A stretch of DNA of 64,000 nt from an uncultured bacterium (GTDB lineage Bacteria > Hydrothermota > Tepidihabitantia > B3-TA06 > CAYQJV01): assembly GCA_964417925.1 (NCBI GenBank), contig CAYQJV010000003.1, positions 13,941 to 77,940 of the forward strand, read 5' to 3'. How positions within the stretch are numbered: position 1 is the stretch's first letter; the number at the start of each line of letters is the position of its first letter. The notes under the pieces are model-generated. The model was not told where the DNA came from. It saw nothing but the letters and a program-made list of their open reading frames with translations, and made no database searches. Made by a program: the position numbers and the translations under genes. This document shows positions 12,961 through 43,467 of the stretch, in pieces.

Positions 12961-14223
12961 TTAAAAAATATATTTTCTGGGGTCTGTTATCCTTCCTTCA
13001 ATGCATGATGCTGCAACTGTTGCAGGAGAGGCAAGGAATATCTCTGCTTCCTTTGCTCCCATTCTTCCTTTGAAATTTCTATTGGATGTGGAAATCACAA
13101 CCTCTTCCTCTGCGAGAACCCCTTGATGGGCTCCAAGACATGGACCACAACCAGGATTTAAGATAATAGCTCCTGCATCAACCAAGGTTTTTAAAATTCC
13201 TTGCTCCATCGCATCTTTGTACACCTCCCAAGATGCAGGTAGGATCAAAAGTCTAACATCAGAGTGAACCTTCTTGCCCTTAAGAATCTCTGCAGCAACC
13301 TTCAGGTCCTCAAGTCTTCCATTTGTGCATGTGCCTATAAGGCCTTGATTTATCTTTTTCCCTTCCCATTCCTTTACTGGATACACATTATCCACAGTAT
13401 GGGGTACAGCAATTTGAGGTTCTAAGGATGATATATCAAACTCATATATATTTTCATACCTTGCATCAGGATCCGGGAGGATTATTTCATAATCCTTTTG
13501 TGCTCTGTGTTTTATCCATTCAATGGTCTTTTCATCCGGTGCAATAAATGCATTCTTTGCTCCCATTTCTGCTGCCATGTTGGAAAGGACCATTCTGGAA
13601 GAGATAGAAAACTCCTTCACTACATTTCCTGAAAACTCCACTGACTTATATGTTGCTCCATCTGATTTTAACCTCCCTATGATATGGAGTATAACATCCT
13701 TTGCATAAACTCCAGAAGGTAATTTACCCTTTATCTCTATCTTTATACTTTCAGGAACTCTGAGCCATATCTCATCAATTGCCCAGAGTGCTGCAACTTC
13801 ACTCCTTCCTATCCCTGCTGAAAATGCACCAAATGCTCCATAGGTGGTTGTATGAGAATCTGCTCCAAGGATCACAAGTCCAGGGAGTGCAAATCCTTTT
13901 TCAGATAGTACCTGATGGCATATTCCTCCTTGGCTATTTATGTCATAAAAGTTTTTTATACCGTTTTTCTTAACAAATTCTCTTATAATCTTGTGATTTC
14001 TTGCATAATCAATGGATGCAGGAGGAACTACATGGTCAAGCACAATAACAACCTTTGAAGGATCTTTAACCTTTTCTCCCCCCATCTTTGAAAATGTTAG
14101 AGAAATTGATGCAGTGTTGTCATGTGACATCACAAAATCAGGTGATATGTAAACAATATCACCTGATTTTACATCCTTTCCTGCCTTTTTTGAAAGTATC
14201 TTTTCTGCAAAAGTTTTGCCCAT
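12961..14223 (-). CDS. Aconitase-family dehydratase large subunit, LeuC/HACN (archaeal short) type
   Basis: MGKTFAEKIL N-terminus. Motifs GICHQV, GADSHTTT, GTCTNGR, GCGPCLG, SNRNFKGR. There is no LeuD-like small-subunit gene adjacent. Confidence 0.75.
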   Translation of the reverse strand: MGKTFAEKILSKKAGKDVKSGDIVYISPDFVMSHDNTASISLTFSKMGGEKVKDPSKVVIVLDHVVPPASIDYARNHKIIREFVKKNGIKNFYDINSQGGICHQVLSEKGFALPGLVILGADSHTTTYGAFGAFSAGIGRSEVAALWAIDEIWLRVPESIKIEIKGKLPSGVYAKDVILHIIGRLKSDGATYKSVEFSGNVVKEFSISSRMVLSNMAAEMGAKNAFIAPDEKTIEWIKHRAQKDYEIILPDPDARYENIYEFDISSLEPQIAVPHTVDNVYPVKEWEGKKINQGLIGTCTNGRLEDLKVAAEILKGKKVHSDVRLLILPASWEVYKDAMEQGILKTLVDAGAIILNPGCGPCLGAHQGVLAEEEVVISTSNRNFKGRMGAKEAEIFLASPATVAASCIEGRITDPRKYIF

Positions 14224-14225
14224 TT

Positions 14226-14804
14226 TTACCCCCTGAAAGGTTCAAAGTTGACAAAATCAGCATGATGAACTATTATTGCTTCAATTGTTCTTTTAACAAA
14301 CTCTCCTTCTTTTGAATGAGAAGATATAATGTGAATAACCTGAGCAGGAAGCCCTACCTTATAGGCTATTCCAGCTCCTGAGATGGGATGTCTTATCATC
14401 TCCCCGTTTTTGCTTTTTTTATAACTGTGTTCGTTCTTTTCGTATTCAAGTAATTTCCCTACATCATGTAATAAAGCTCCTGCGATAAGGTAGTCTCTGT
14501 TGATTTTTACTTTATCTTTATACATTTCTTCCAATACCTCTGCTATCTTTAATGCAGTCTTGGTAACAGCCTTTGTATGTTCTATCAAGCTGAAAGGAGC
14601 AGGTTTTATAAGAAGGGTAAATGGAATCTTTTCAAGCTCATCAGGGGTAAAACATGATTCCTCTATTGCGATCTTCCAGCATTCTATTACTTTTTCTTTT
14701 AACTCATTATCCTTTATTTCTTCTATCTCTGGGAAAAGAGATTTTATTCTTTCCTTTAATTTATTCATCATGTAGTTCTCCTGTGTATTTACAAGTTGTT
14801 GCAT
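14226..14804 (-). CDS. HD-domain phosphohydrolase
   Basis: HD motif AGALLHDVGK and a downstream HHADF. The annotated start overlaps the upstream gene, so the real start is probably an internal Met. Confidence 0.65.
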   Translation of the reverse strand: MQQLVNTQENYMMNKLKERIKSLFPEIEEIKDNELKEKVIECWKIAIEESCFTPDELEKIPFTLLIKPAPFSLIEHTKAVTKTALKIAEVLEEMYKDKVKINRDYLIAGALLHDVGKLLEYEKNEHSYKKSKNGEMIRHPISGAGIAYKVGLPAQVIHIISSHSKEGEFVKRTIEAIIVHHADFVNFEPFRG

Positions 14805-15534
14805 CTATCTTTCTCATGGGTTTTTGAGTTGTCTGTTCTTCATAAATATGAGCAACGAGTCCTGGAGTTCTTGCCATGATAAAAAATGCGTTACCTATTT
14901 CAGGTGGAAATCCAAGCTCACACAAAAGTGCTGCAATTGCTCCATCAACATTTACAGGAAGTTCCTTTCCTTTTAATTTTTTTATTGCATTCTTTATCAA
15001 CAGAGCTATTTTCACATAATCTCCGTAAAATCCCTGTTCTTCTGCAATTTTAAATAGTTTTTGGGTTCTGGGATCGTTGGTATGGTATCTATGTCCAAAA
15101 CCAAAAAGTTTTTCTTTTTTTTCAAGTTTTTCTTTTACGTACTCTTCTGTGGACTGCTCAAGAGATTTCTGTTCCTGTTGGCTCTTTCTTTTTATATCAA
15201 GATAATGTTTCATTGCACCTTCAATTGCTCCTCCATGATAGTTGTAGATTGCAAGTATTCCAGCAGCAAGCGAGGAATGCAGAGGGTTGCCTGTAGATGC
15301 AACGGTCCTTGCTGTAATGGTTGATGGAGGAGTAACTCCATGGTCAATTGAGGATAAGAGGATTGCATCAAGAATTTTCCGAATTCTTTCATCAGGAAGC
15401 TTACCAGTAAGGACAAGATATATTCCATCAACAAAACCGATTTCTCCCATTAATTTATCTATTCGGTATCCTCTAACATATATTTTATTCGGTTCAACTT
15501 TTGTGATTTTCGTTTCCCAGTAATGTTCGTTCAT
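14761..15534 (-). CDS. Short citrate-synthase-like protein (citryl-CoA lyase-like, catalytic domain only)
   Basis: Citrate synthase C-terminal domain signatures: SSIDHGVTPPSTITARTVASTGNPLHSSLAAGI, GFGHRYHTNDPR, FFIMARTPGLVAHIYEE. At 257 aa it has the length of CCL-type proteins. Confidence 0.7.
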   Translation of the reverse strand: MNEHYWETKITKVEPNKIYVRGYRIDKLMGEIGFVDGIYLVLTGKLPDERIRKILDAILLSSIDHGVTPPSTITARTVASTGNPLHSSLAAGILAIYNYHGGAIEGAMKHYLDIKRKSQQEQKSLEQSTEEYVKEKLEKKEKLFGFGHRYHTNDPRTQKLFKIAEEQGFYGDYVKIALLIKNAIKKLKGKELPVNVDGAIAALLCELGFPPEIGNAFFIMARTPGLVAHIYEEQTTQKPMRKIDATTCKYTGELHDE

Positions 15535-15543
15535 TTTCCCCCC

Positions 15544-16158
15544 TCATTTTTCAAGGACTTTTCTTATTTCAGAGAGAAGATGACTTGGACTTTTTATTGG
15601 GGATTCAATATTTTCCAAGATCTCCTCTGCAGATTTTGTCTTTATTGTTAATCCCTTTAATCTTTCATAAAGTGTATTTTTATCCACGGGAAAGTCAACT
15701 CCTTTTATTCTCCTCAGCACTTCAACACTCCAAGTAATTCCGAGACTTTCAGAAGCCTGTTGAAATGCGTGTATGAATACGGTTAAATTATCCCTTCCTT
15801 CTTTTATTTCTTTATAAGCAAGTTTTGCAAGCCCTCCTGCTGTGTGGGCTTTAATTGTTTTTTCCTGTAATTCTCCTTCTATTTTCTTCATTACAAGTTC
15901 TGGATCTGCTCTTAAGATATTCCTAACAGTCTGTCTTGTTAAACCAAGGAATTCTGCTATTTCATCTTCTGTTTTGTAGGACTCCTCAGAAAGGACAATT
16001 GCATAGGATGCCTCCATTAAACTTGTTATCCAGGTAAGATTTCGTAGTTCAATCAACTTTCTTGGTCCTCCCAGTAATTCAAGGGCTTTTAAAAAAACTC
16101 TTATTGCAGTTGCATCTACATCAAACTCCCTTATTTCTTCAGGTTTGATTACCGGCAT
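15544..16158 (-). CDS. Putative HTH-domain transcriptional regulator
   Basis: Probable helix-turn-helix DEIAEFLGLTRQTVRNILR. It is the first gene of the minus-strand CCL-like/HD/aconitase-like operon. The start is most likely the ATG at 16158 preceded by GGAGG. The ORF track extends to a GTG at 16164. Confidence 0.4.
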   Translation of the reverse strand: MPVIKPEEIREFDVDATAIRVFLKALELLGGPRKLIELRNLTWITSLMEASYAIVLSEESYKTEDEIAEFLGLTRQTVRNILRADPELVMKKIEGELQEKTIKAHTAGGLAKLAYKEIKEGRDNLTVFIHAFQQASESLGITWSVEVLRRIKGVDFPVDKNTLYERLKGLTIKTKSAEEILENIESPIKSPSHLLSEIRKVLEK

Positions 16159-16216
16159 CTTCACCTCCGTTTTTAAGTTATTATACTTTGCTGTATTCCT
16201 ATGTCAATATTCTTAT

Positions 16217-16244
16217 TTGACATAATACCTATGAGGGGTATAAT
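16217..16244 (+). promoter_or_regulatory. Consensus sigma70 promoter TTGACA-16-TATAAT for small ORF 16264
   Basis: TTGACA at 16217-16222, 16-nt spacer, TATAAT at 16239-16244. AGGAGGAGG SD at 16255-16263. The 7-bp inverted repeat ATGTCAA (16201-16207) / TTGACAT (16217-16223) overlaps the -35. Confidence 0.45.
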
Positions 16245-16263: not shown

Positions 16264-16485
16264 ATGGAAAAACTCAAGAGATACGGATGGGTGTTTGTGG
16301 TAGTTATGTTGGGAGTTGCAGGTGGTTATGCAATAGCCAGAGCAGAATGGGATTCTTCGGGTTCCTCTTCCTCTGACAGTTATACCCTTAAAAGAATAGA
16401 GAATCATCTTGAAAATATATCTGAAGAATTGAAAGAACTTAACCGTATTCTCAGAGATATAAAAGATGAGATTAACAATAGATAA
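16264..16485 (+). CDS. Small single-pass membrane protein with C-terminal coiled coil (FtsB/DivIC-like architecture)
   Basis: MEKLKRYGWVFVVVMLGVAGGYAIA (TM), a Ser-rich linker, then the heptad-like RIENHLENISEELKELNRILRDIKDEINNR. It has a strong SD and a perfect promoter. The ORF track starts at an upstream in-frame codon, 16201. Confidence 0.45.
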   Translation: MEKLKRYGWVFVVVMLGVAGGYAIARAEWDSSGSSSSDSYTLKRIENHLENISEELKELNRILRDIKDEINNR

Positions 16486-16504: not shown

Positions 16505-16532
16505 TTGACTTAACAATATAAAGGCATATAAT
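16505..16532 (+). promoter_or_regulatory. Sigma70-like promoter TTGACT-16-TATAAT upstream of nrdJ (with SD AGGAGG at 16545-16550)
   Basis: TTGACT at 16505-16510, TATAAT at 16527-16532. The ATG is at 16562. Confidence 0.45.
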
Positions 16533-16561: not shown

Positions 16562-18697
16562 ATGAAACACCCTGCAAAAATTAGAAAAAGAGATGGAAGG
16601 ATAGTGGATTTTGACCAAGAAAAAATAACAAATGCGATATTTAAGGCTGCAAAGGCTGTAGGTGGTTCAAATTATGAACTTGCAAGGGAACTTTCTCGTA
16701 AAGTTGTTGAAATATTGAATGAAAAATATGGTGAAGATGGTATCCCCTCTGTTGAAGAGGTTCAAGATATCGTTGAAAAGGTTTTGATTGAAGAGGGTCA
16801 TGCGAAGACTGCAAAGGCATATATTTTATACCGTAAGAAGAGGACAGAACTTAGAGAGGCAAAGCAGTTCTTTATAGGAGTTCCTGATGAACTTAAACTC
16901 TCTTTAAATGCTCTAAAGGTTCTTGAAAGGAGGTATTTGTTAAAGAATGAGAAGGGAGAAGTTATAGAGACTCCTGCTCAACTATTCAGAAGGGTTGCAA
17001 GGCACATTGCTTCTGCTGATTTGAACTACGACCCAAATGCAGATGTTAAAAAACTGGAGGATGAGTTCTATGAGATGATGGTTAACTTTGAATTTCTCCC
17101 CAACTCTCCAACTCTAATGAATGCTGGAACAGAGCTTGGTCAACTTGCTGCATGCTTTGTTATTCCTGTGGAGGACTCTCTTGAGGCTATTTTTGAAGCA
17201 GTTAAGTATGCTGCTCTTATTCATAAAACAGGAGGAGGGACAGGATTTTCCTTTTCAAGATTAAGACCAAAAAATGATGTGGTTAAAACCACAGGGGGAA
17301 TTGCTTCAGGTCCTGTATCCTTTATGAGGGTTTTTGATGTTGCAACCGATGTGATAAAACAAGGAGGGAGAAGAAGGGGAGCAAATATGGGGGTTCTGCG
17401 GGTTGACCATCCTGATATTTTAGAGTTTATAACTGCAAAGGAAAAGGAAGGGATGCTTACAAACTTCAATATATCGGTTGCTGTTACCGATGAATTTATG
17501 CATGCAGTTGAAAAGGATGAGAACTATCCTTTGAGAAATCCAAGAACAGGGGAGGTGGTGCAGAAGATAAGAGCAAGAGATGTTTTTAATCTTATTGTGA
17601 CAATGGCATGGAAAAATGGAGATCCGGGAATGATATTTATAGATAGAATAAATAGAGATAACCCTACCCCTGCTCTTGGAGAGATAGAGGCAACAAATCC
17701 ATGTGGAGAACAACCTTTACTTCCCTATGAAGCATGTAATCTTGGTTCCATAAACCTGTCAAAATTCGTAAATGGAGGAAAAATAGATTTTGAAAGGCTT
17801 GCAAAGGTTGTGCACAAGGCAGTGCACTTTCTTGATAATGTAATTGATAAAAGTAAGTATCCATTAAAAAAGATTGAAGAAATGGTAAAAGGGAACAGGA
17901 AGATAGGTCTTGGAGTAATGGGATTTGCAGATATGCTTTTAAAACTTGGGATTCCTTATGATTCTGAACAGGCACTTGAGACAGCTGAAAAGGTTATGCG
18001 TTTTATTAAAGAACAGGCAGAAAAGGCGACGATTGAACTTGCAAAAAAGAGAGGTCCTTTTCCAAACTTTGATAAAAGCGTTTACAAACAAAGAGGAGAA
18101 CCTGAGAGGAGAAATGCCACTTTAACTACCATTGCTCCGACAGGCTCTATAAGCATAATTGCCAATACCTCTTCAGGAATAGAGCCTTTGTTTGCGGTTG
18201 TGTTTATAAGAAATGTAATGGAAGGTACAGAACTATTGGAGGTAAATCCAGTTTTTGAACAGATTGCAAGAGAAAGGGGATTTTATTCTGAAAGGTTGAT
18301 GAGGGAAATAGCAAGGACAGGTTCGGTTCAGAAGATTAAAGGAGTTCCAGGTGATGTAAAAAGGATATTTGTGACGGCCCATGAGATTGCTCCTAAATGG
18401 CATGTTCTGATGCAGGCAGCGTTTCAACGCTATGTGGATAATGCAGTTTCAAAAACCGTTAATCTTCCATATCATGCTACTCCAATGGATGTAGCTGATG
18501 TGTTCTGGCTTGCTTACAGAACAGGATGTAAAGGAATAACTGTTTATAGGGATAGGAGTAAACCTACCCAGGTTCTTTATCGTGGAGAAGTGAAAAAGAA
18601 AGGTTCAGTGTATGATTCTTTTGCAGAATCCCTATCCGAGAAATATTTTTCGGTTGATTCAGAGTATGCAGGTGGATGTCCTACCTGCAGTCTTTAA
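16562..18697 (+). CDS. nrdJ: Class II (adenosylcobalamin-dependent) ribonucleotide reductase with N-terminal ATP-cone
   Basis: ATP-cone KIRKRDGRIVDFDQEKITNAI. Active-site region NPCGEQPL...EACNLGSINL. C-terminal tail ...GGCPTCSL typical of NrdJ. Confidence 0.9.
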   Translation: MKHPAKIRKRDGRIVDFDQEKITNAIFKAAKAVGGSNYELARELSRKVVEILNEKYGEDGIPSVEEVQDIVEKVLIEEGHAKTAKAYILYRKKRTELREAKQFFIGVPDELKLSLNALKVLERRYLLKNEKGEVIETPAQLFRRVARHIASADLNYDPNADVKKLEDEFYEMMVNFEFLPNSPTLMNAGTELGQLAACFVIPVEDSLEAIFEAVKYAALIHKTGGGTGFSFSRLRPKNDVVKTTGGIASGPVSFMRVFDVATDVIKQGGRRRGANMGVLRVDHPDILEFITAKEKEGMLTNFNISVAVTDEFMHAVEKDENYPLRNPRTGEVVQKIRARDVFNLIVTMAWKNGDPGMIFIDRINRDNPTPALGEIEATNPCGEQPLLPYEACNLGSINLSKFVNGGKIDFERLAKVVHKAVHFLDNVIDKSKYPLKKIEEMVKGNRKIGLGVMGFADMLLKLGIPYDSEQALETAEKVMRFIKEQAEKATIELAKKRGPFPNFDKSVYKQRGEPERRNATLTTIAPTGSISIIANTSSGIEPLFAVVFIRNVMEGTELLEVNPVFEQIARERGFYSERLMREIARTGSVQKIKGVPGDVKRIFVTAHEIAPKWHVLMQAAFQRYVDNAVSKTVNLPYHATPMDVADVFWLAYRTGCKGITVYRDRSKPTQVLYRGEVKKKGSVYDSFAESLSEKYFSVDSEYAGGCPTCSL

Positions 18698-18702
18698 AAA
18701 TA

Positions 18703-19997
18703 ATGGGTAAAAAAAAACAGTTGCCATCGTTGGAAGGCCAAATGTAGGAAAATCCACATTATTTAATAGAATTACAAGGAAAAAGATAGCAATTACTCTA
18801 AGAGAGCCGGGAATTACCAGAGATGTAATTGAAGAAGAGTGTGAGTGGCAAAACAAGAAGTTTTTACTTTTAGATACCGGAGGCTATATACCACAGCCAT
18901 CGGATTCCATTTCTGAAAAGGTAAAAAAACAGGTTTTTTATGCTTTACAAAGAGCAGACTTAGTGCTTTTTGTAGTAGATGCAAAGGAAGGAATTCATCC
19001 TCTGGATTTTGAAGTGGCAGAGATTTTGAGAAGGTCAAACAAAGAAGTTATCCTTGTAATAAACAAGATGGATGTGAAGACTGCTTCCTTCAATGTGTGG
19101 GAGTTTACAAGACTCGGTTTTGAAAAAGTTTATAAGGTTTCTGCTGAGCATGGAAAAGGAATAGGAGAGCTTTTGGATGAGATAACCAAAGATATAAAAG
19201 AAGAAAAAGAATTAAATGGAGATAGAATAAATGTGATAATTGTTGGAAGACCAAATGTAGGAAAGTCCACGCTCCTTAATGCATTGGTAAAAGAGGAAAG
19301 AGTTATTGTGGATAATACTCCAGGGACTACAAGGGACCCAGTTAAAGTAGAGAAGGATAAAGAAGGAGTTAAGTTTTCGCTCATAGACACTCCAGGGGTT
19401 AAAAAGAAAAGCAAGATAAAAGATATAGTAGAGTTTCTTTCTTCTAAGAGACTTGAAAAAAGGGTGATGGAAGCAGATGTAGCAGTGGTGGTAATAGATG
19501 CTCAAGAGGGACTCACACATCTTGAAAAGACCATTACCGGATGGTTGCTTGAAGAAGGGAAAGGAGTGATTGTAGTGGTAAATAAGTGTGATCTGTTAAA
19601 GAAAAGGGAAGTTCCTGAAATTGTTCAATATGTAAAAGCCTCTTTGCATTTTGCAAGAAACATTCCCGTAGTCCCAATTTCTGCATTAAAAGAAGAGGGA
19701 TTAGAGAAAATAGAAAATGAAGTTGTAGATGTAGCAAGAGAGAGGAAGAAAAAAATATCTGCTAAAACATTGGAAGAGGTATTTGAGAACATAATTTCTT
19801 CTCATCCTCCGCCAAGAGGAGCGATAATTAAAAGAATAGTGCAGGTTGGTATAGCACCACCGAGTTTTATTATGTTGTCTCCAAAACCTGAGAGAATAGA
19901 GCATTCTTATTTGAGGTACATAAAGAACAGATTATATGATTATTTTGGGTTTAAAGGGGTTGACATAAGAATAACAGTAAAAAGGAAAATAAAATAG
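18703..19997 (+). CDS. der: Ribosome-biogenesis GTPase Der/EngA (tandem GTPase + KH-like), reading frame interrupted in an A9 homopolymer near the start
   Basis: ATG 18703 (MGKKK) runs into a stop at 18745-18747. The -1 frame from 18711 encodes KKTVAIVGRPNVGKSTLFNR (G1) ...DTGG... plus a second GTPase domain (VIIVGRPNVGKSTLLN...DTPG...NKCD) and a KH-like C-terminus. One extra A, or a -1 slip in A9 (18709-18717), gives the canonical MGKKKTVAIVGRPNVGKS. Confidence 0.8.
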
Positions 19998-20005
19998 GGA
20001 GTTAT

Positions 20006-20033
20006 TTGACATTCATAATATTCTACATACAAT
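20006..20033 (+). promoter_or_regulatory. Sigma70-like promoter TTGACA-16-TACAAT, -10 ends 6 nt before folD ATG (leaderless-type)
   Basis: TTGACA at 20006-20011, TACAAT at 20028-20033, ATG at 20040. Confidence 0.4.
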
Positions 20034-21750: not shown

Positions 21751-23615
21751 GTATTCTTGAGAGGATAAATTCTCCTGCAGATTTAAAAAAATTGAAACTT
21801 GAAGAGCTTGAAAAACTTACCGGAGAGATAAGGAAAAGAATAATAGAGGTAACCGCAAAAAATGGAGGGCATGTAGCACCGAATCTTGGGGTGGTTGAAC
21901 TTACAATTGCATTACACTATGTGTTTAATGCGCCGCAAGACAAAATAATATGGGATGTAGGGCATCAGTGTTATACCCATAAACTTTTGACTGGCCGAAG
22001 GAAGGCTTTTGAAACTATAAGAAGAAAGGGAGGAATTTCAGGATTTCCCAAAAGAGAGGAGAGTGAATACGATGTTTTTGGAACAGGACATGCAGGAACA
22101 TCATTATCTGCTGCTTATGGAGTTGCAGTGGCACGGGATTTACTTAATGAGAACTACCGGGTAATTGCAGTAATAGGAGATGGTTCTTTGATTTCAGGAA
22201 TGGCACTTGAAGCATTAAACCATATAGGAGCTTCAGGAAAGGATATAATGATAATTCTTAATGACAATGGAATGTCCATTGCAAAAAACCCTGGAGCTAT
22301 TGCTCTTTACCTAAACAGAATAATAACCATGCCTTTTTATAAGAGATTAAGAGCTAAGGTATGGAATTTACTTGGTAAACTTCCTGCAGAAAAAAGGGAT
22401 AGAGCAAGGAGAGTCGCAAGAAAGATAGAGAAGAGAATGAAAGGATTACTTATTCCTGGGGTATGGTTTGAGGAGCTTGGTTTTCATTATTTTGGTCCTC
22501 TTGATGGACATGATTTAAAAGGACTTATATCCTTCTTTAAGAGAATTGAGGACATTCATGGTCCTTTATTGATACATGTGTTGACAAAGAAGGGATATGG
22601 ATTTGAAATTGCCCAGGAGAATCCTGAACTCTTCCATGGAGTTGGTCCTTTTGATTTGAAGTCTTTTGAAATAATAAAGAAGGGTAGTAAAAAGAGTTAT
22701 TCTTCTTTCTTTGGAGAGACTCTTGTTGAATTTGCAGAAAAAGATAAAAGGATAGTTACAATTACTGCTGGAATGTGTCTTGGCACAGGGCTTACGAAGT
22801 TTAGAGAAAGATTTCCCCAAAGGTTCTTTGATATGGGGATAACTGAGGAACACTGTGCTACCTTTGCAGCAGGACTTACCTTGAGGGGTTTGAAGCCGGT
22901 TTTTGCTATTTATTCTACATTTTTACAGAGAGCTTTTGACCAGGTGATACATGATATTGCATTGCAGAAACTTCCGGTTATTTTCTGTATAGATAGAGCA
23001 GGCATTGTAGGAGAGGATGGTCCAACTCATCATGGAACATTTGATATTTCATACTTAAGACTCATACCCAACATAGTGGTTTCTGCTCCAAAAGATGAAG
23101 ATGAATTAAAAGACCTTTTATATACTGCTTTAAACTATGATAAAGGACCTTTTGCATTGAGATATCCAAGAAGTTCTGTAGTCGGAGTTAAAGTAAAAAA
23201 GAGCCCCCAAAAAATTGAGATAGGCAAATGGGAAGTTCTGAAAAAAGGAAGAGATGTGTGTATTCTTGCTGTTGGATCAATGGTATATCCATCTCTTGAA
23301 GCAGCAGAGATTTTGAAAAGATGTGGCATCTCTGCTCAGGTGGTGAATGCAAGATTTATAAAGCCTCTGGATGAGGGAATGCTTGAGGTGATGGCGAGAA
23401 GATTTAAAAAATTGGTAACGGTTGAAGAAAATACCTTAGAAGGTGGTTTTGGAAGCGCAGTATTGGAATTTCTTGAGAAAAAGAAAATAAAGAAGGAGGT
23501 CTTAAGGATAGGTATACCCGATAAATTTATAGAGCATGGTTCAAGGAGTGAGTTACTTTCAGAAATTGGTTTAACAAAGGAGGGTATATCGGAAAAGATT
23601 AGAATGTTTTTATGA
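21747..23615 (+). CDS. dxs: 1-deoxy-D-xylulose-5-phosphate synthase
   Basis: TPP-binding region GHAGTSLSAA...IGDGSLISGMALEALNH, and the transketolase-like middle and C-terminal domains. 622 aa. Confidence 0.9.
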   Translation: MSILERINSPADLKKLKLEELEKLTGEIRKRIIEVTAKNGGHVAPNLGVVELTIALHYVFNAPQDKIIWDVGHQCYTHKLLTGRRKAFETIRRKGGISGFPKREESEYDVFGTGHAGTSLSAAYGVAVARDLLNENYRVIAVIGDGSLISGMALEALNHIGASGKDIMIILNDNGMSIAKNPGAIALYLNRIITMPFYKRLRAKVWNLLGKLPAEKRDRARRVARKIEKRMKGLLIPGVWFEELGFHYFGPLDGHDLKGLISFFKRIEDIHGPLLIHVLTKKGYGFEIAQENPELFHGVGPFDLKSFEIIKKGSKKSYSSFFGETLVEFAEKDKRIVTITAGMCLGTGLTKFRERFPQRFFDMGITEEHCATFAAGLTLRGLKPVFAIYSTFLQRAFDQVIHDIALQKLPVIFCIDRAGIVGEDGPTHHGTFDISYLRLIPNIVVSAPKDEDELKDLLYTALNYDKGPFALRYPRSSVVGVKVKKSPQKIEIGKWEVLKKGRDVCILAVGSMVYPSLEAAEILKRCGISAQVVNARFIKPLDEGMLEVMARRFKKLVTVEENTLEGGFGSAVLEFLEKKKIKKEVLRIGIPDKFIEHGSRSELLSEIGLTKEGISEKIRMFL

Positions 23616-26600
23616 TAAATCTATTCCTTTTATTTTTTATTACGCCGAATTTTTACTCTTACTTGTCTAAGGAGGTAAATATCAGCTATGACTATGGTAT
23701 CGTATTTGAAGAAAAGTGGATTGACTCGGTCTTTCTTGGTATAGAAAGTGTAAAGACCCTGTCTTCCTATCTTGCCCAAAAAACAAGAGAATCCATGGTA
23801 AAGAAGTTTCTATCCCAAACAAAGGAGAGGTTAAAAAAGGAGTCCCTTGGATCCTTGGTTATGGAAGGACTTATCCCTAAGATAGAGATACCGGGTTTTG
23901 AAGAAGAAACTTCTATAGATATCTCCGGATCCGATCAGATCACTGTGGGTATGGGAAGTACTAAATATGCAGAAGGGCAATCTGTATCAATTGAACCGGA
24001 AATGAAGCAGGATATAAAAGTAAAGGTACTTGGAACAATAGCAAGAAAGACCCAGGTAGAGATGGACTACAGTTCTCAGAGGGAGGTGCAGGCGGAAAAT
24101 ACAATAAGAATAACATATCAGGGGGATGAAGATGAGGTGACTGAATATATAAAGGCGGGAGATATATCTTTAACAATGCCAACCACTGTTATGACCGGAG
24201 GACTCCCCACCCATAAAGGACTTTTTGGATTCAGTGGTAAATGGAGGTTTGGCCCTTTAACTCTTTATGCAGTGGCTTCTAAGGAGGAGGCTACCTCTAC
24301 GACTCAAGAGTTTACTCAAGGAATAAATGTAGAGGAAAAAAAGGATTCAATATACGATTATCAATACGAAAAGGAAAGGTTTTTTACCATTCTCAATGAT
24401 TCTATAAAAAAATATCTGGGTGATGATACAATTATTACCGGAGTAGGTGTTTATGTATTTGATTACACAACCCCTGATAGGATTACAAAACCTGCTGTTG
24501 CAACTCCTTATGGAAATCTCTATCCTGAATATAAACCTTACGATTCCAGAGAAGAAATAACAAAAGGTAACTTCTATCCTCTTGTACGAAACGAAGAGTT
24601 TTACTTTCATGAGGGGACAGGAATAATTGAACTTACAAAATCCTTTTATGGAAACTACATTCTCGCGGTTGCATGTACTACCTCTACTGGAAGAAAACTT
24701 TTCAGCTATAATGGAGATACTTTAATCCTTCTTCTTGTATGGCCAGAGAATCCAGATTCATCTCTTATTACGTGGAAAAACGAACTAAGAAATGTTTATT
24801 CTGTTGGAGATGTTAACATTAAAAACTTAAAGATAACCATAGTGAGAATATCTCCAGGAGATGCTACAGAACTTGAGACCGAAGGTCCTGCTAAAGGAAA
24901 ATCTTTTGCAGAAATTCTTGGAATAGATGCTGACGGAGATGGAATGGTGGATGCAAAGTATATGGACCCCTCCAGGGGTCTTGTATGGTTTCCATATAGA
25001 GAACCGTTTAACCATTCTGACCTCTCGGTAAGAGATTCTTCTATTTATCTTACTCGGTATGTTTCGGATCCAAAATATAAAATAATTTTTTCCTATACAC
25101 GACCTCTACAGTATCAACTTCCGGTAGGAATAAAGGAAGGAACAGTAAGAATTTGGGTAAATGGTGAAGAACTTTCTGAGGATGAATTCAGTGTAAATTA
25201 TGCTACAGGAGTGGTTACCATAAAAAGACCTGTGCCAGCAGGTGCTGAGATAAAGATAACTGCTGAGCAGACTCCTTTCTTTATAAACCCCAGAGAAGGA
25301 TCAATAGCAGGAATAAGAGCAGAGACAAAACTTACAGAAGATGCTACGATTGGATGGACCTTTTTATATAGAAATGAGAAGGAAAGGGGAGTAATAAGAC
25401 CGACCATAGGATCAGAACCGTATAGTAGAGCAATAACTGCTCTTGATCTTAAAATAGATAAAGAACTCGGGGGAATTACAGAGTTTCTTGATAGACTCCC
25501 TCTTATAAGTACTGATGAACCATCTACGATAAATTTTGAGACCGATGTAGGTATTTCAATGCCAAATCCCAACACTATGGGGACAGCCTACATTGAAGAT
25601 TTTGAAGGAATTGAGGAGAGCGATGAGCTGGTAATAACTAAGAGATGGTATCCTCCAAGTATTCCTGTTTCCAAGGACTCTGCTATAGAGACATATTCAA
25701 GGAGAAGACCACAGATAGATGTGGTGACCATAAATAAAAGGGATGTGTTTGGTGAGGTTACAGGTGATGTGTTCCAGAATCTTCAGGATGTCTTAAGAAT
25801 TGTATATACTCCAGAAGATAGTACACGGTGGAGTGGAATAATGACTGCTCTTGTCGGAGGAGAGGTTTTCGATATCACAGATAAAGATAACTTGGAGTTT
25901 ATATTTAAAACAGATGCAAAAAAAGGTAGAATCTATATAGATTTTGGTTCAGATATAGATGAAGATATGCTTCGGCTGGATAAAGATGGAAATATAAGAG
26001 GATTGGATACCTTGGATACAGAGGATAAAAATGGAAATATGATGTTAAATTTAGGGGAAGATACAGGACTGGATGGTATTGCTGGAAAGGATGGTGAGGA
26101 GGTTGCAGGAGATGATGGAAATGATGATTATGATGAGAAAACAAATCTCATGGGTACTGAGGGGAATGGAATGCTTGATACCGAAGATATTGACCAGGAC
26201 TGGGGTTGGAATGGTGGGAGTTTTACAAGAAACGATTATTATGAGGTAATGATAGATCTGGAAAAAGAAAGTGAGTATATTGAGGAACTTGAAAATGGAT
26301 GGAAGCTTCTCAGGATACCTCTTTCTGATTCATCTGCTTATAAAAAATTCGGGAGTCCCCAGGCTAAACTTATTAATGAATTCAGAGTGTGGTTTGAAGG
26401 AATGGAGGGAGTTGACACGCTTTATATTTACTCTTTAAAGTTCCAAGGCACGGTGTGGAAAGGCCTATCGGTGTATAAAGAAGACACCACCTCTGAAGAG
26501 CCGGATACCACAGAGAAGGTCTCTATTGCCCCAGTGAATAGAGAAATTGACCCTGAGTATACTTCTCCTTTTAAGCTAAGAAAAGACATAAGTGGACAGT

Positions 26601-29053
26601 ATGAAATAGAAAATGCACTTGAACTTAAGTATGAAAATATAAAACCTGGACATGGAGTCAAAATATATCGCTACAGTACAGATCCTTTGGATCTTAGAGG
26701 CTATAAAAAGATTTCTATCTACATACATGGGGATGAAGAAAGCGCTCTTTTTTTCCTTAAAATAGGTACAGATTCGTTAAACTATTATGAATATAGAAAC
26801 AAAATCAACGCAGGCAAAAAAGTTGAATATGGAGAAGGGTGGAGAGAATTTGAAATTGATCTTGCCGGGTTTGCCTCAATAAAGAAAGATTCTATACAAT
26901 CCGATACTCTCAAATTCTATGGGGATCCAACTCTGGCTAATATTAGGTACCTATCCCTTGGAATTATAAATGGAGGAGAAGGAGAAATATCGGGTAAGGT
27001 ATGGTTTAACGATATTAGGGTGAAGGATCCGTGGAGGGAAAAAGGAGTATCTTTCACAGGAAGGTTGAAATTTAAACTCGCAGATGTGGGATTTACCACT
27101 GTTAACTTTTCAAGAAGTGATCCTAACTTTGTTTCCTTTTCAGATCCAACAGGAGTTAAGGCAGGTGGACTTACAAACAATCTTTCCGTGTTTACTCAAG
27201 CAAATATTGATAAACTTTTTCCAAAAAAGGCAGGTTTTAAAATACCATTGGGGATTACTTATACACGAAGGACCTCCACTCCCAAATTTTCACCTTATGT
27301 AAGTGACTATCGAATAGGTAAAAAAGAGGCAGAAGAATTTACTGAAACGAGTGATAATAAAGGATTTAAAATTTCTTTTTCAAAAAACAAAAAGTCTAAA
27401 AATAAATTTTTAAACTACACTATAGATGCATTAAACTTAAGTACAGAGGCTTCATTAAATCATAACTTAAGGAATGCTACTAAGAATCTTGATTCTACAA
27501 GAAGTTTTAATACTAAAGCATCCTACCGAATATCTCCTCAGTTGTTCATGAAGGTTAAAGGTCGGAAGATATACTTTATACCGAATAGTATATCCCTTAC
27601 TCTATCCCAAAACTATTCCTACTCCAGGAGTTGGTCAAGAGTTTCTCCTGATGAGTCTTTTGGTAAGCCAATTTATGCAGATGAAAGAAAGACCTTTGTT
27701 ATTTCTTCTTCGGCAACTCACTCCTTTATAGAAAGATTTCTTTCTTTTAGTGCTGTATTTTCAAATACAAGAGATTTAAAGGAACCAAATTATGTAAGAG
27801 GAATCAATATAGGAAGGGATGCAGGCAAAAATTTGAGACTTACGTACAGTATTTCAGGAGTGAACTTAAAAGATTTTGGGAGGCCTGGTGTTAGTGTTCA
27901 AACAGACTATCAAGAGAATCATTCTATAGATATACAGATAGACACTTTTGATACGCGAAATCTCAATAACTCCTTTAATCTAAATGCCTCCTGGCCTGGT
28001 ATAAATACAGGCGGAATTATTGAAAAAATTAAGTTTATTTTTCCTCAAAAGGATACAGTAGAAAAGAAAGGATCTCCTCGATGGTTGATTCATACCTTTG
28101 CTTCAATTTTGAAAAAAGTTAGACCTTTGGAGGTTTCCTATGGGTACTCTAAAAGTTCTTCCTATCAGTACTACCTTGGGGTTCCATCTACAAGATACAT
28201 ACTTGGGTTTGAAGATAGTATTCCTCTGTATGGAGAAGACAGCACAGTTCAGTATTTAGGTACGGGTTCAAGAAGAAGAGAGCATCGGCTATCTCTGGAG
28301 ACAGGGGCTACTGTAGGAGATATTAATCTAAATTTGAGAGCGAATAAAAATGCTTCCTTCACATTGAACTTTGGGCAGACGAACTTTTCTTATTCATATA
28401 TTCTTCCTTCTGTATCTCTGAATATTTACAACCTTTCAAAGCACATCAAGAAATTTCTTCCAACACTGCAGAATGCATCTTTAAACTCTTCTTTTGAAAG
28501 GAAAAAGACCTATAATGGAACCATAGAGTATCAAGATAATGGAGGGATGATCGCGGATACAAATGCAGTAACTGAAGAGATGAATTTCTCACCCCTTGTG
28601 TCTCTCTCAACCTATTGGAAGAGGAAGGTTACCCTCACTGCCCAGGTTACCCATCAAGATACAAGAACCATAAGGATTTTTGGAGAGCTTGGAACTACTG
28701 TTACACGTTACAAAAAAACCGATTATGAATTCTCTGCTGGATACTTATTTAGTGCTCCTTCAGGGCTTAAAATACCTTGGCTGAGAAATGTGAGGTTTAA
28801 AAATGACCTTAATCTCAATGCAACCTTTATGGTTTCAGAAATTAAAAATTCAAAGTATGATGAGTCCACAGGTGAAGAAGATGTGTTGATAGATGATATA
28901 GAAAAACAGCTTACTGTATCTGCATCTTACAACTTTTCAAATACCTTTACAGGAGGACTTAATTTTATTTACAAATCAAAACATTCTCGGGTGAATCCGA
29001 GGTATGATTATTCTCAGTATCGTCTTGATGTGGTAATTACTATAAAATTCTGA
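23612..29053 (+). CDS. Giant (1813 aa) secreted outer-membrane beta-barrel protein, SprA/Sov-like (candidate T9SS translocon)
   Basis: N-terminal signal sequence. Extreme length. The C-terminal third is rich in alternating S/T/N/Y/F beta-strand-like segments and ends in ...VITIKF with a terminal Phe (OMP signature). An internal Asp/Gly-rich segment is present. The context has a T9SS CTD cargo and a PorX-like regulator. The family assignment (SprA) is tentative. Confidence 0.4.
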   Translation: MINLFLLFFITPNFYSYLSKEVNISYDYGIVFEEKWIDSVFLGIESVKTLSSYLAQKTRESMVKKFLSQTKERLKKESLGSLVMEGLIPKIEIPGFEEETSIDISGSDQITVGMGSTKYAEGQSVSIEPEMKQDIKVKVLGTIARKTQVEMDYSSQREVQAENTIRITYQGDEDEVTEYIKAGDISLTMPTTVMTGGLPTHKGLFGFSGKWRFGPLTLYAVASKEEATSTTQEFTQGINVEEKKDSIYDYQYEKERFFTILNDSIKKYLGDDTIITGVGVYVFDYTTPDRITKPAVATPYGNLYPEYKPYDSREEITKGNFYPLVRNEEFYFHEGTGIIELTKSFYGNYILAVACTTSTGRKLFSYNGDTLILLLVWPENPDSSLITWKNELRNVYSVGDVNIKNLKITIVRISPGDATELETEGPAKGKSFAEILGIDADGDGMVDAKYMDPSRGLVWFPYREPFNHSDLSVRDSSIYLTRYVSDPKYKIIFSYTRPLQYQLPVGIKEGTVRIWVNGEELSEDEFSVNYATGVVTIKRPVPAGAEIKITAEQTPFFINPREGSIAGIRAETKLTEDATIGWTFLYRNEKERGVIRPTIGSEPYSRAITALDLKIDKELGGITEFLDRLPLISTDEPSTINFETDVGISMPNPNTMGTAYIEDFEGIEESDELVITKRWYPPSIPVSKDSAIETYSRRRPQIDVVTINKRDVFGEVTGDVFQNLQDVLRIVYTPEDSTRWSGIMTALVGGEVFDITDKDNLEFIFKTDAKKGRIYIDFGSDIDEDMLRLDKDGNIRGLDTLDTEDKNGNMMLNLGEDTGLDGIAGKDGEEVAGDDGNDDYDEKTNLMGTEGNGMLDTEDIDQDWGWNGGSFTRNDYYEVMIDLEKESEYIEELENGWKLLRIPLSDSSAYKKFGSPQAKLINEFRVWFEGMEGVDTLYIYSLKFQGTVWKGLSVYKEDTTSEEPDTTEKVSIAPVNREIDPEYTSPFKLRKDISGQYEIENALELKYENIKPGHGVKIYRYSTDPLDLRGYKKISIYIHGDEESALFFLKIGTDSLNYYEYRNKINAGKKVEYGEGWREFEIDLAGFASIKKDSIQSDTLKFYGDPTLANIRYLSLGIINGGEGEISGKVWFNDIRVKDPWREKGVSFTGRLKFKLADVGFTTVNFSRSDPNFVSFSDPTGVKAGGLTNNLSVFTQANIDKLFPKKAGFKIPLGITYTRRTSTPKFSPYVSDYRIGKKEAEEFTETSDNKGFKISFSKNKKSKNKFLNYTIDALNLSTEASLNHNLRNATKNLDSTRSFNTKASYRISPQLFMKVKGRKIYFIPNSISLTLSQNYSYSRSWSRVSPDESFGKPIYADERKTFVISSSATHSFIERFLSFSAVFSNTRDLKEPNYVRGINIGRDAGKNLRLTYSISGVNLKDFGRPGVSVQTDYQENHSIDIQIDTFDTRNLNNSFNLNASWPGINTGGIIEKIKFIFPQKDTVEKKGSPRWLIHTFASILKKVRPLEVSYGYSKSSSYQYYLGVPSTRYILGFEDSIPLYGEDSTVQYLGTGSRRREHRLSLETGATVGDINLNLRANKNASFTLNFGQTNFSYSYILPSVSLNIYNLSKHIKKFLPTLQNASLNSSFERKKTYNGTIEYQDNGGMIADTNAVTEEMNFSPLVSLSTYWKRKVTLTAQVTHQDTRTIRIFGELGTTVTRYKKTDYEFSAGYLFSAPSGLKIPWLRNVRFKNDLNLNATFMVSEIKNSKYDESTGEEDVLIDDIEKQLTVSASYNFSNTFTGGLNFIYKSKHSRVNPRYDYSQYRLDVVITIKF

Positions 29054-42712: not shown

Positions 42713-42844
42713 GTTTATTGATTTGATTCTGTTGGATGTATAATTAAAAATCATGGAGCTTTATGGAGGTAGCCCATTTTTAAAAAAGTATTAAAAGATT
42801 ATTTTCTTTTAGGTTCCATTTTAACATTTATTTTATTATCTTTT

Positions 42845-43292
42845 TTGTTCCCCTGTAAAATAAGAAAATATCCTGAATTTGTTGATTGGACAACAATGGT
42901 TATTTTAACTTCGCTCATTATAATTACTACAGGTTTAAAGGAAAGTGGATTCTTCCAGCATATTTCCGAGAATTTGGTTTTTGGATTTAAAAACGAAAGA
43001 AAGCTCGCTTTGGTGATGATAATAATTTCTGTGTTTTTTTCTATGTTTTTGACAAACGATATTACACTTTTTATTTTGATTCCCATTACCCTTGAAATGC
43101 AAAAAAGACTCAAAAATGATTTAAGAAAGTTAATAATTTTTGAAAACTATCGCAGTAAATGTTGGCTCTCTTTTAACTCCTGGAGGGAATCCACAAAATG
43201 TATTTATATGGCACAGATGGGATGTTCCTTTTGTTAAATTCATATGGAGAATGCTTCCAGCAGAATTGGTTTGTTTTGGGTACTCTTTATAA
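42845..43292 (+). pseudogene. Remnant of an ArsB/NhaD-superfamily (YbiR-like) anion permease; frameshifted and 3'-truncated
   Basis: The frame from 42845 gives a permease N-terminal TM hairpin (...FLTNDITLFILIPITLEM) and then diverges. The 43137-43292 frame gives IAVNVGSLLTPGGNPQNVFIW, the family hallmark. Only ~150 of the expected >400 aa are present, and 43293-43502 is non-coding. Confidence 0.55.
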
Positions 43293-43467
43293 TTGCTTTA
43301 TTTGAATTCAAAGATAATGCTTTATATTTACATGTTAAATTTTATAATCACAAAGTTAACAAACTATACCTCTTAAATTTTTTCTGCATTCAGTAAAAGA
43401 AAATCTACTTGAATTTTATATAACAGGCATTGTGCTTTCACAACTTATAAGTAATATCTCTTTTAAA

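Follow-up and report, generated by a model that had tools for sequence, protein, structure and literature searches.

A one-base frameshift in an A9 tract at the start of der, probably compensated by slippage, in an uncultivated bacterium

As encoded in the DNA of an uncultivated bacterium, the gene der (engA) is frameshifted at a run of nine A's. The position of this run, exactly where the Der reading frame loses its start, is more than chance. The DNA analyzed is a stretch of 64 kb, which is referred to as a whole as the window. We consider it probable that a real and recent deletion of one base occurred in an A10 tract and that it is compensated by transcriptional slippage, by a −1 ribosomal slip on the heptamer A_AAA_AAA, or by both, with the net outcome that der would be expressed at a reduced level and not lost.

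The initiation codon of der is the ATG at 18703-18705 (+ strand), which has no Shine-Dalgarno sequence and is probably coupled translationally to the upstream gene nrdJ. It is followed by the A9 homopolymer at 18709-18717 (+), the proposed slippage site, which is flanked by T18708 and C18718 and is T9 in the template; no other run of nine or more A or T occurs in the 64-kb window. From ATG 18703, the zero frame reads ATG GGT AAA AAA AAA CAG TTG CCA TCG TTG GAA GGC CAA ATG TAG, a dead-end ORF of 14 codons (MGKKKQLPSLEGQM*; 18703-18747, +) closed by TAG 18745-18747. Upstream, the Der frame is closed by TAA 18708-18710 (+), whose last two bases are also the first two of A9. After this TAA, the −1 frame opens inside A9, reads KKTVAIVGRPNVGKSTLFNR... 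and is free of stops over the 429 codons to TAG 19995-19997 (der coding frame 18711-19997, +; 428 sense codons plus the stop). ATG 18703 thus stands in the +1 register relative to the Der frame. When the length of the run was modeled, A7, A10 and A13 gave full-length proteins of 430, 431 and 432 aa, respectively, and A6, A8, A9, A11 and A12 gave peptides of 13-21 aa. The frame break coincides with an A homopolymer of 9 nt, as in genes rescued by slippage. Furthermore, an X_XXY_YYZ heptamer, as at programmed −1 sites, is present in the zero-frame register: A_AAA_AAA at 18711-18717 (+), in the correct phase for a tandem −1 slip of the ribosome, after which the next codon would be ACA (Thr).

The earliest ATG, GTG or TTG in the Der frame is GTG 18963, well beyond the first P-loop, and the frame therefore has no canonical alternative start; as encoded, der is not an uninterrupted ORF with a start codon ahead of the P-loop of the first G domain (GD1). 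Two other ways of entering the frame were considered and rejected. Initiation at ATC 18726, the only near-cognate codon between TAA 18708 and GTG 18963, would delete beta-strand 1 and has no ribosome-binding site, and readthrough from a 32-codon ORF in the Der frame (18612-18710), which ends at TAA 18708-18710, is unsupported. The initial annotation had described der as out of frame at A9, with an ORF from ATG 18703 that soon stops, and had seen no in-frame start with a ribosome-binding site ahead of the G1 motif. Its coordinates and readings all proved exact, and our own search for an alternative start or ribosome-binding site also found none.

The protein restored by one additional A is a complete Der. 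The A10 version (431 aa) scores 473.5 bits against the NCBIfam equivalog TIGR03594 (ribosome biogenesis GTPase Der), for which the curated cut-off is 306.7 bits, and its residues 6-427 are aligned with profile positions 2-432 of 432. It has two tandem G domains, each with the motifs G1-G4 (GRPNVGKS at 11, TRD at 39, DTGG at 58 and NKMD at 121 in GD1; GRPNVGKS at 182, TRD at 210, DTPG at 229 and NKCD at 294 in GD2), and a C-terminal KH-like domain. The restored N-terminus, MGKKKTVAIVGRPNVGKS, places the P-loop glycine at position 11, within the family range of 8-11. Beyond the break at A9, the der frame contains no further stops, indels or loss of motifs. Because the match to TIGR03594 extends from end to end, the motifs of both G domains are complete and the KH-like domain is present, der carries a single lesion. 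These results agree with the earlier proposals that one more A or a −1 slip yields a canonical Der start and that the gene is probably functional, the latter being favored by an ORF that is otherwise intact. The peptides TVAIVGRPNVGK and, at the N-terminus, (M)GKKKTVAIVGRPNVGK would mark the full-length protein.

Gene callers report for der only a product of 344 aa that starts from GTG 18963 and has no first P-loop; the Pfam domains on record for this truncated product are two copies of PF01926 and one of PF14714 (KH_dom-like). This call could be taken to mean that A9 is real and der unrescued, so that the gene is dead or N-terminally truncated and in early decay, or that a second copy or some other factor substitutes for it. 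A second der may lie elsewhere in the genome, as the 64-kb window alone was examined, and a multi-frameshift, truncated permease pseudogene in the window (42745-43400) indicates that decay does occur in this genome. However, the 344-aa product would miss the P-loop, G2 and G3 of GD1, and the ORF has exactly one lesion with no other degeneration. Der is essential in the bacteria tested, and an uncompensated null allele should therefore not dominate in two sequencing runs, as the A9 allele does. We thus regard an unrescued dead allele as very improbable.

The reproducibility of A9 was examined in further assemblies. The same A9 is present in per-run assemblies of two runs, on contigs L001 (SRR15988952, 6458 bp) and L009 (SRR15988951, 2456 bp), both of which are 100% identical to the window; they show one clone in two sequencing runs and are no evidence of conservation in evolution. 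Contigs from both runs, L001/L008 (SRR15988952) and L009 (SRR15988951), encode exact copies of the 344-aa product and of the neighboring folD product. Among 5.8 billion clustered proteins, the only close match to the der product is the 344-aa call, a singleton cluster from 3 contigs, and neither an in-frame 431-aa version nor any other trace of an A10 allele was found in the collection. No publications naming SRR15988951 or SRR15988952 were found.

These observations bear on the view that A9 is a sequencing or assembly artefact, with a true tract of A10, a gene in frame and one A lost in the consensus. Homopolymers of 9-10 bases are the commonest place for consensus indel errors, the der tract exceeds all others in the window in length, and one added A gives a perfect Der; moreover, the three assemblies may share libraries, and L001 and L009 show 100% identity with the window, so that a systematic read bias would recur in all of them. 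On the other hand, two different runs, each assembled separately, both give A9, the kilobase-long per-run contigs that match the window exactly would argue for accurate reads, and no A10 allele has been assembled anywhere in the protein collection. The other homopolymers of the window also speak against an artefact. All 18 eight-base runs of A or T are A8 on the sense strand and lie within long intact ORFs, which makes a general homopolymer error problem unlikely, and none of the 92 A7 or T7 runs breaks an ORF. The reproduced A9 together with the 18 in-frame A8 runs shifts weight away from assembly error, and we consider an artefact unlikely, though less so than the other alternatives. Five overlapping pairs of adjacent ORFs were also considered as genes split by homopolymer errors, and they were rejected as such since they are separate complete genes by Pfam.

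The gene packing of the window is otherwise tight, and it is interrupted only at der and at one decayed permease remnant. The latter (42745-43400, +) is of the CitMHS/ArsB type. Its ORF at 42845-43237 matches only positions 36-124 of the 336 in PF03600; homology goes on in a second frame ('IAVNVGSLLTPGGNPQN', 43140-43292) and then apparently returns to the first. With at least 2-3 frameshifts, the C-terminal half gone and no run of seven or more at the breaks, it represents a true pseudogene in decay, and apart from der no further broken gene was seen in the 64 kb. As an example of inactivating frameshifts in this genome, it counts against rescue of der.

It is also conceivable that the tract is a hypermutable contingency locus, in which replication slippage mixes cells with A9 (low or off) and A10 (on) and the assemblies show the majority allele. 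Phase-variable genes classically have a homopolymer of 9-10 nt within their 5′ coding region. Runs of this kind are hypermutable (PMC1088944). Against this, the consensus of both runs is A9 and no A10 allele is on record, as far as an assembly consensus, in which minority alleles are invisible, can tell; der is a housekeeping gene and not a surface or restriction-modification gene, and its off state would be lethal without slippage. We regard a contingency locus as the least probable of the readings considered.

Long runs of A are treated in a distinctive way in this genome. The window has a G+C content of 35%, and 68% of its lysine codons are AAA. A7 runs are over-represented (56 observed vs 23 expected), and AAA-AAA pairs occur at the expected rate (141 observed vs 133 expected). 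Runs of nine or more show the opposite trend: 1 was observed vs 11.3 expected under a first-order Markov model, and a count of 1 or fewer was obtained in 0 of 200 simulations. Similarly, Lys-Lys-Lys is written as AAA-AAA-AAA in none of 22 triplets in 57 ORFs, vs 6.9 expected, a result with a chance of ~2.5e-4 under the codon usage. The same signature of run avoidance was used by Baranov et al. to infer the run length that is prone to slippage, which is nine in many genomes (PMC1088944). The counts imply that the genome treats A9 as harmful, with the der tract as the sole exception in the window. If A9 has been purged elsewhere in the window, it should be slippery enough here to be counterselected, and hence slippery enough to provide an in-frame der product. 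Several genes start with ATG AAA AAA..., with A6-A8 after the start codon and MKK N-termini (starts at 1705, 4853, 43503, 59442 and 59918). A-rich 5′ ends of coding sequences are a general tendency of this genome, and the der tract is its most extreme case.

To compare the length of the A-tract at orthologous loci, a check proposed in the initial annotation, we searched for der homologs. The closest orthologs, with 61-62% identity, are L002 (a MAG), L011 (a JGI metagenome with contig names that start with 'GBSed') and L012 (a hydrothermal vent metagenome), followed by L010 at 50% and L013 at 45%. No der proteins between 62% and 100% identity were found in the protein search of the collections, the best match in a scan of genome contigs was 61%, and a metagenome DNA pattern allowing A7-A11 at the tract returned 0 matches. 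The relatives all have an ordinary in-frame ATG (MKTKIAIVG, MKGKVAILG, MKTVSIVG), and their A-runs at the der start are interrupted, as in ATGAAAACAAAAATA; an AAG-interrupted form of the window tract would be AAAAAGAAA. Their der begins 0-9 nt past the nrdJ stop and likewise has no Shine-Dalgarno sequence. The gene nrdJ lies directly upstream of der in L002, L010 and L011, and a different gene lies there in L013 (45%).

The ATG of the relatives is aligned with TAA 18708-18710, so the restored Der of the window has a two-residue N-terminal extension. An ancestral start at this TAA was considered and rejected, because a change from ATG to TAA or the origin of the upstream ATGGG needs several changes, and the loss of a single base from A10 is by far the more economical account. 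The relatives at 45-62% identity all have der in frame, which marks the frameshift as lineage-specific and not as a conserved programmed feature; the slippery heptamer is absent from these orthologs, and the pair of frames is not conserved. Nothing in these alignments shows that the der frameshift is conserved, programmed or under selection. The ordinary starts and interrupted A-runs of the nearest relatives (61-62%, 50% and 45%) also count against rescue.

The transcriptional context of der was then considered. The B12-dependent ribonucleotide reductase gene nrdJ (16562-18697, +; 711 aa; 777 bits on TIGR02504 and 1022 bits on NF006417) ends with TAA 18695-18697, 5 nt before the der ATG; an exact look-up of the NrdJ protein found no record. 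Ahead of nrdJ lies a sigma-70-like promoter, TTGACT-16-TATAAT (16505-16532, +), which agrees with the consensus at 11 of 12 positions, a consensus match only, and which likely drives a nrdJ-der transcript. The gene folD has a sigma-70-like site of its own (11/12, 20006-20033), and no comparable site was found directly upstream of der. As no such site precedes der, which has no Shine-Dalgarno sequence and a gap of only 5 nt to nrdJ, the gene is probably co-transcribed and translationally coupled with nrdJ, as judged from these consensus matches.

Several other features lie upstream of nrdJ. Two perfect sigma-70 consensus promoters (TTGACA-16-TATAAT, 12/12) point in opposite directions within one short intergenic region (16180-16244, both strands). 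Since GGAGGAGG and ATG 16265 come after the promoter on the + strand, a small gene there probably starts at 16265 and not at 16201, the start of the longest ORF; its protein from this ATG has 73 aa, and a membrane anchor and a coiled coil are predicted in it. On the − strand, 15544-16164 encodes a 206-aa protein with a TIGR03879 'near_KaiC' probable regulatory domain (120 bits), and no kaiC was identified beside it among the ORFs examined. A citryl-CoA lyase (14761-15534, −; NF004869, 280 bits) lies near a large subunit of the aconitase/isopropylmalate-dehydratase family (12961-14223, −), with an HDIG-domain protein between them; the citryl-CoA lyase and aconitase-family genes (12961-15534) belong to the types that serve in the reductive TCA cycle. 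Downstream of der, a very large ORF of 1813 aa (23612-29053, +) follows dxs directly, with a 4-nt overlap with the dxs stop.

The steps of rescue would be as follows. The ancestral tract would have been an in-frame A10 encoding Lys-Lys-Lys-Thr at the 5′ end of der, from which one A was lost in the genomic DNA of the population. RNA polymerase would stutter on the T9 template and add one A (or four, or remove two) in a fraction of the nrdJ-der transcripts. Also, or instead, ribosomes from ATG 18703 would slip back by one base on A_AAA_AAA. Both routes would lead to the identical protein of 431 aa, MGKKKTVAIVGRPNVGKS..., and events without slippage would give the 14-residue peptide. Both the occurrence of slippage and a sufficient yield of Der from it are inferred.

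Decoding of a real A9 may also take place chiefly by −1 ribosomal frameshifting on A_AAA_AAA (18711-18717) and not by slippage of RNA polymerase. The heptamer is in the proper zero-frame register, and a slip followed by ACA would give MGKKKTVAIVG. However, no downstream stem-loop, pseudoknot or other stimulating RNA structure was found: the fold of 18690-18800 has −15.2 kcal/mol (z = −0.75), 44 of 200 shuffled sequences fold as well, and an Rfam search of the window returned tRNA-Val only. A Shine-Dalgarno-like stimulator (a GGAGG-like element) upstream of the tract is lacking as well. Heptamers without stimulation usually shift only at a low level, and the documented bacterial cases with runs of nine or more are transcriptional. 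In favor of the ribosome, A-rich heptamers of the form X_XXZ_ZZN are established as sites of −1 shifts (PMC4066793), and sliding of ribosomes on A runs has been reported (PMC5009743). Because neither a downstream structure nor an upstream stimulator is present, we rank the ribosomal route second, after the transcriptional one, and consider it distinctly unlikely to be the chief route; both give the same protein and are inseparable by sequence analysis.

Compensation of a recent deletion by slippage, the reading that we prefer, can be compared with several known systems. Blochmannia and Buchnera retain essential genes, dnaX, dnaG and pth among others, that are frameshifted at poly(A) tracts, with ~30% full-length transcripts (PMC3017870). 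The der case resembles these in a single-base indel in an A run of at least nine, in a housekeeping gene that is otherwise intact and in many cases essential, and in an AT-rich genome. By analogy, the frame of der would be restored by A's added to or removed from the mRNA, and a reduced amount of full-length product would be expected. It differs in that the host is uncultivated and not an insect endosymbiont, with its nearest relatives found in metagenomes of hydrothermal sediment and vents, and in that the der site lies at codons 3-5, so that the failed product is merely a 14-residue peptide. Unlike some endosymbiont cases, which are conserved across strains or species, the der case is known from the DNA sequence of one clone.

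In Thermus thermophilus, dnaX contains an A9 run, and transcripts that have slipped account for ~50% of the dnaX product (PMC1088944). The run in der has the same length on the sense strand. In Thermus dnaX, however, the templated length is in frame and slippage makes a second useful product, gamma, whereas the templated length in der is the out-of-frame one, and the product made without slippage seems to be of no use; in contrast to Thermus dnaX, there is no evidence of programming at the der A9. In Citrobacter rodentium, an interrupted tssM is restored by extra A's at an A11 poly(A) run (PMC4256274). As in tssM of Citrobacter rodentium and Yersinia, a prematurely interrupted gene in the window may yield its full-length product through extra A's at a poly(A) run. 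The tssM case differs from der in that the run is an A11 and lies far into the gene, that its two length variants are both functional, that their ratio matters and that the feature is conserved in a second genus. With programmed −1 frameshifting of the dnaX and IS type (A_AAA_AAG or A_AAA_AAA), the der site shares a slippery Lys-Lys heptamer in the correct register, and it differs from this type in lacking a downstream structure, an upstream Shine-Dalgarno-like stimulator and conservation.

A stronger proposal is that the frameshift is no tolerated accident but a maintained throttle, in which der, coupled to and transcribed together with the abundant nrdJ, would be made only from slipped transcripts or ribosomes, setting a low ratio of Der to NrdJ that may depend on temperature or nucleotide pools via polymerase slippage. 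We consider this highly doubtful. If true, it would mean that slippage is programmed into the start of the gene for a ribosome-assembly GTPase that is universally essential, in a host whose presumed lifestyle is free-living and thermophilic.

Taken as a recent deletion rescued by slippage, the der frameshift is a plausible further instance, in an unusual host, of a known phenomenon whose biology is already well described, and it implies no new mechanism. For annotation, the gene should be flagged as der, poly(A)-frameshifted and possibly rescued, and should not be scored as 'missing' in estimates of MAG completeness or essential-gene content. If the A9 is real, it would represent a slippage-compensated frameshift in an essential gene outside the insect endosymbionts, in which the phenomenon is best documented, and it would lie in a genome whose genes are otherwise purged of A9 runs.
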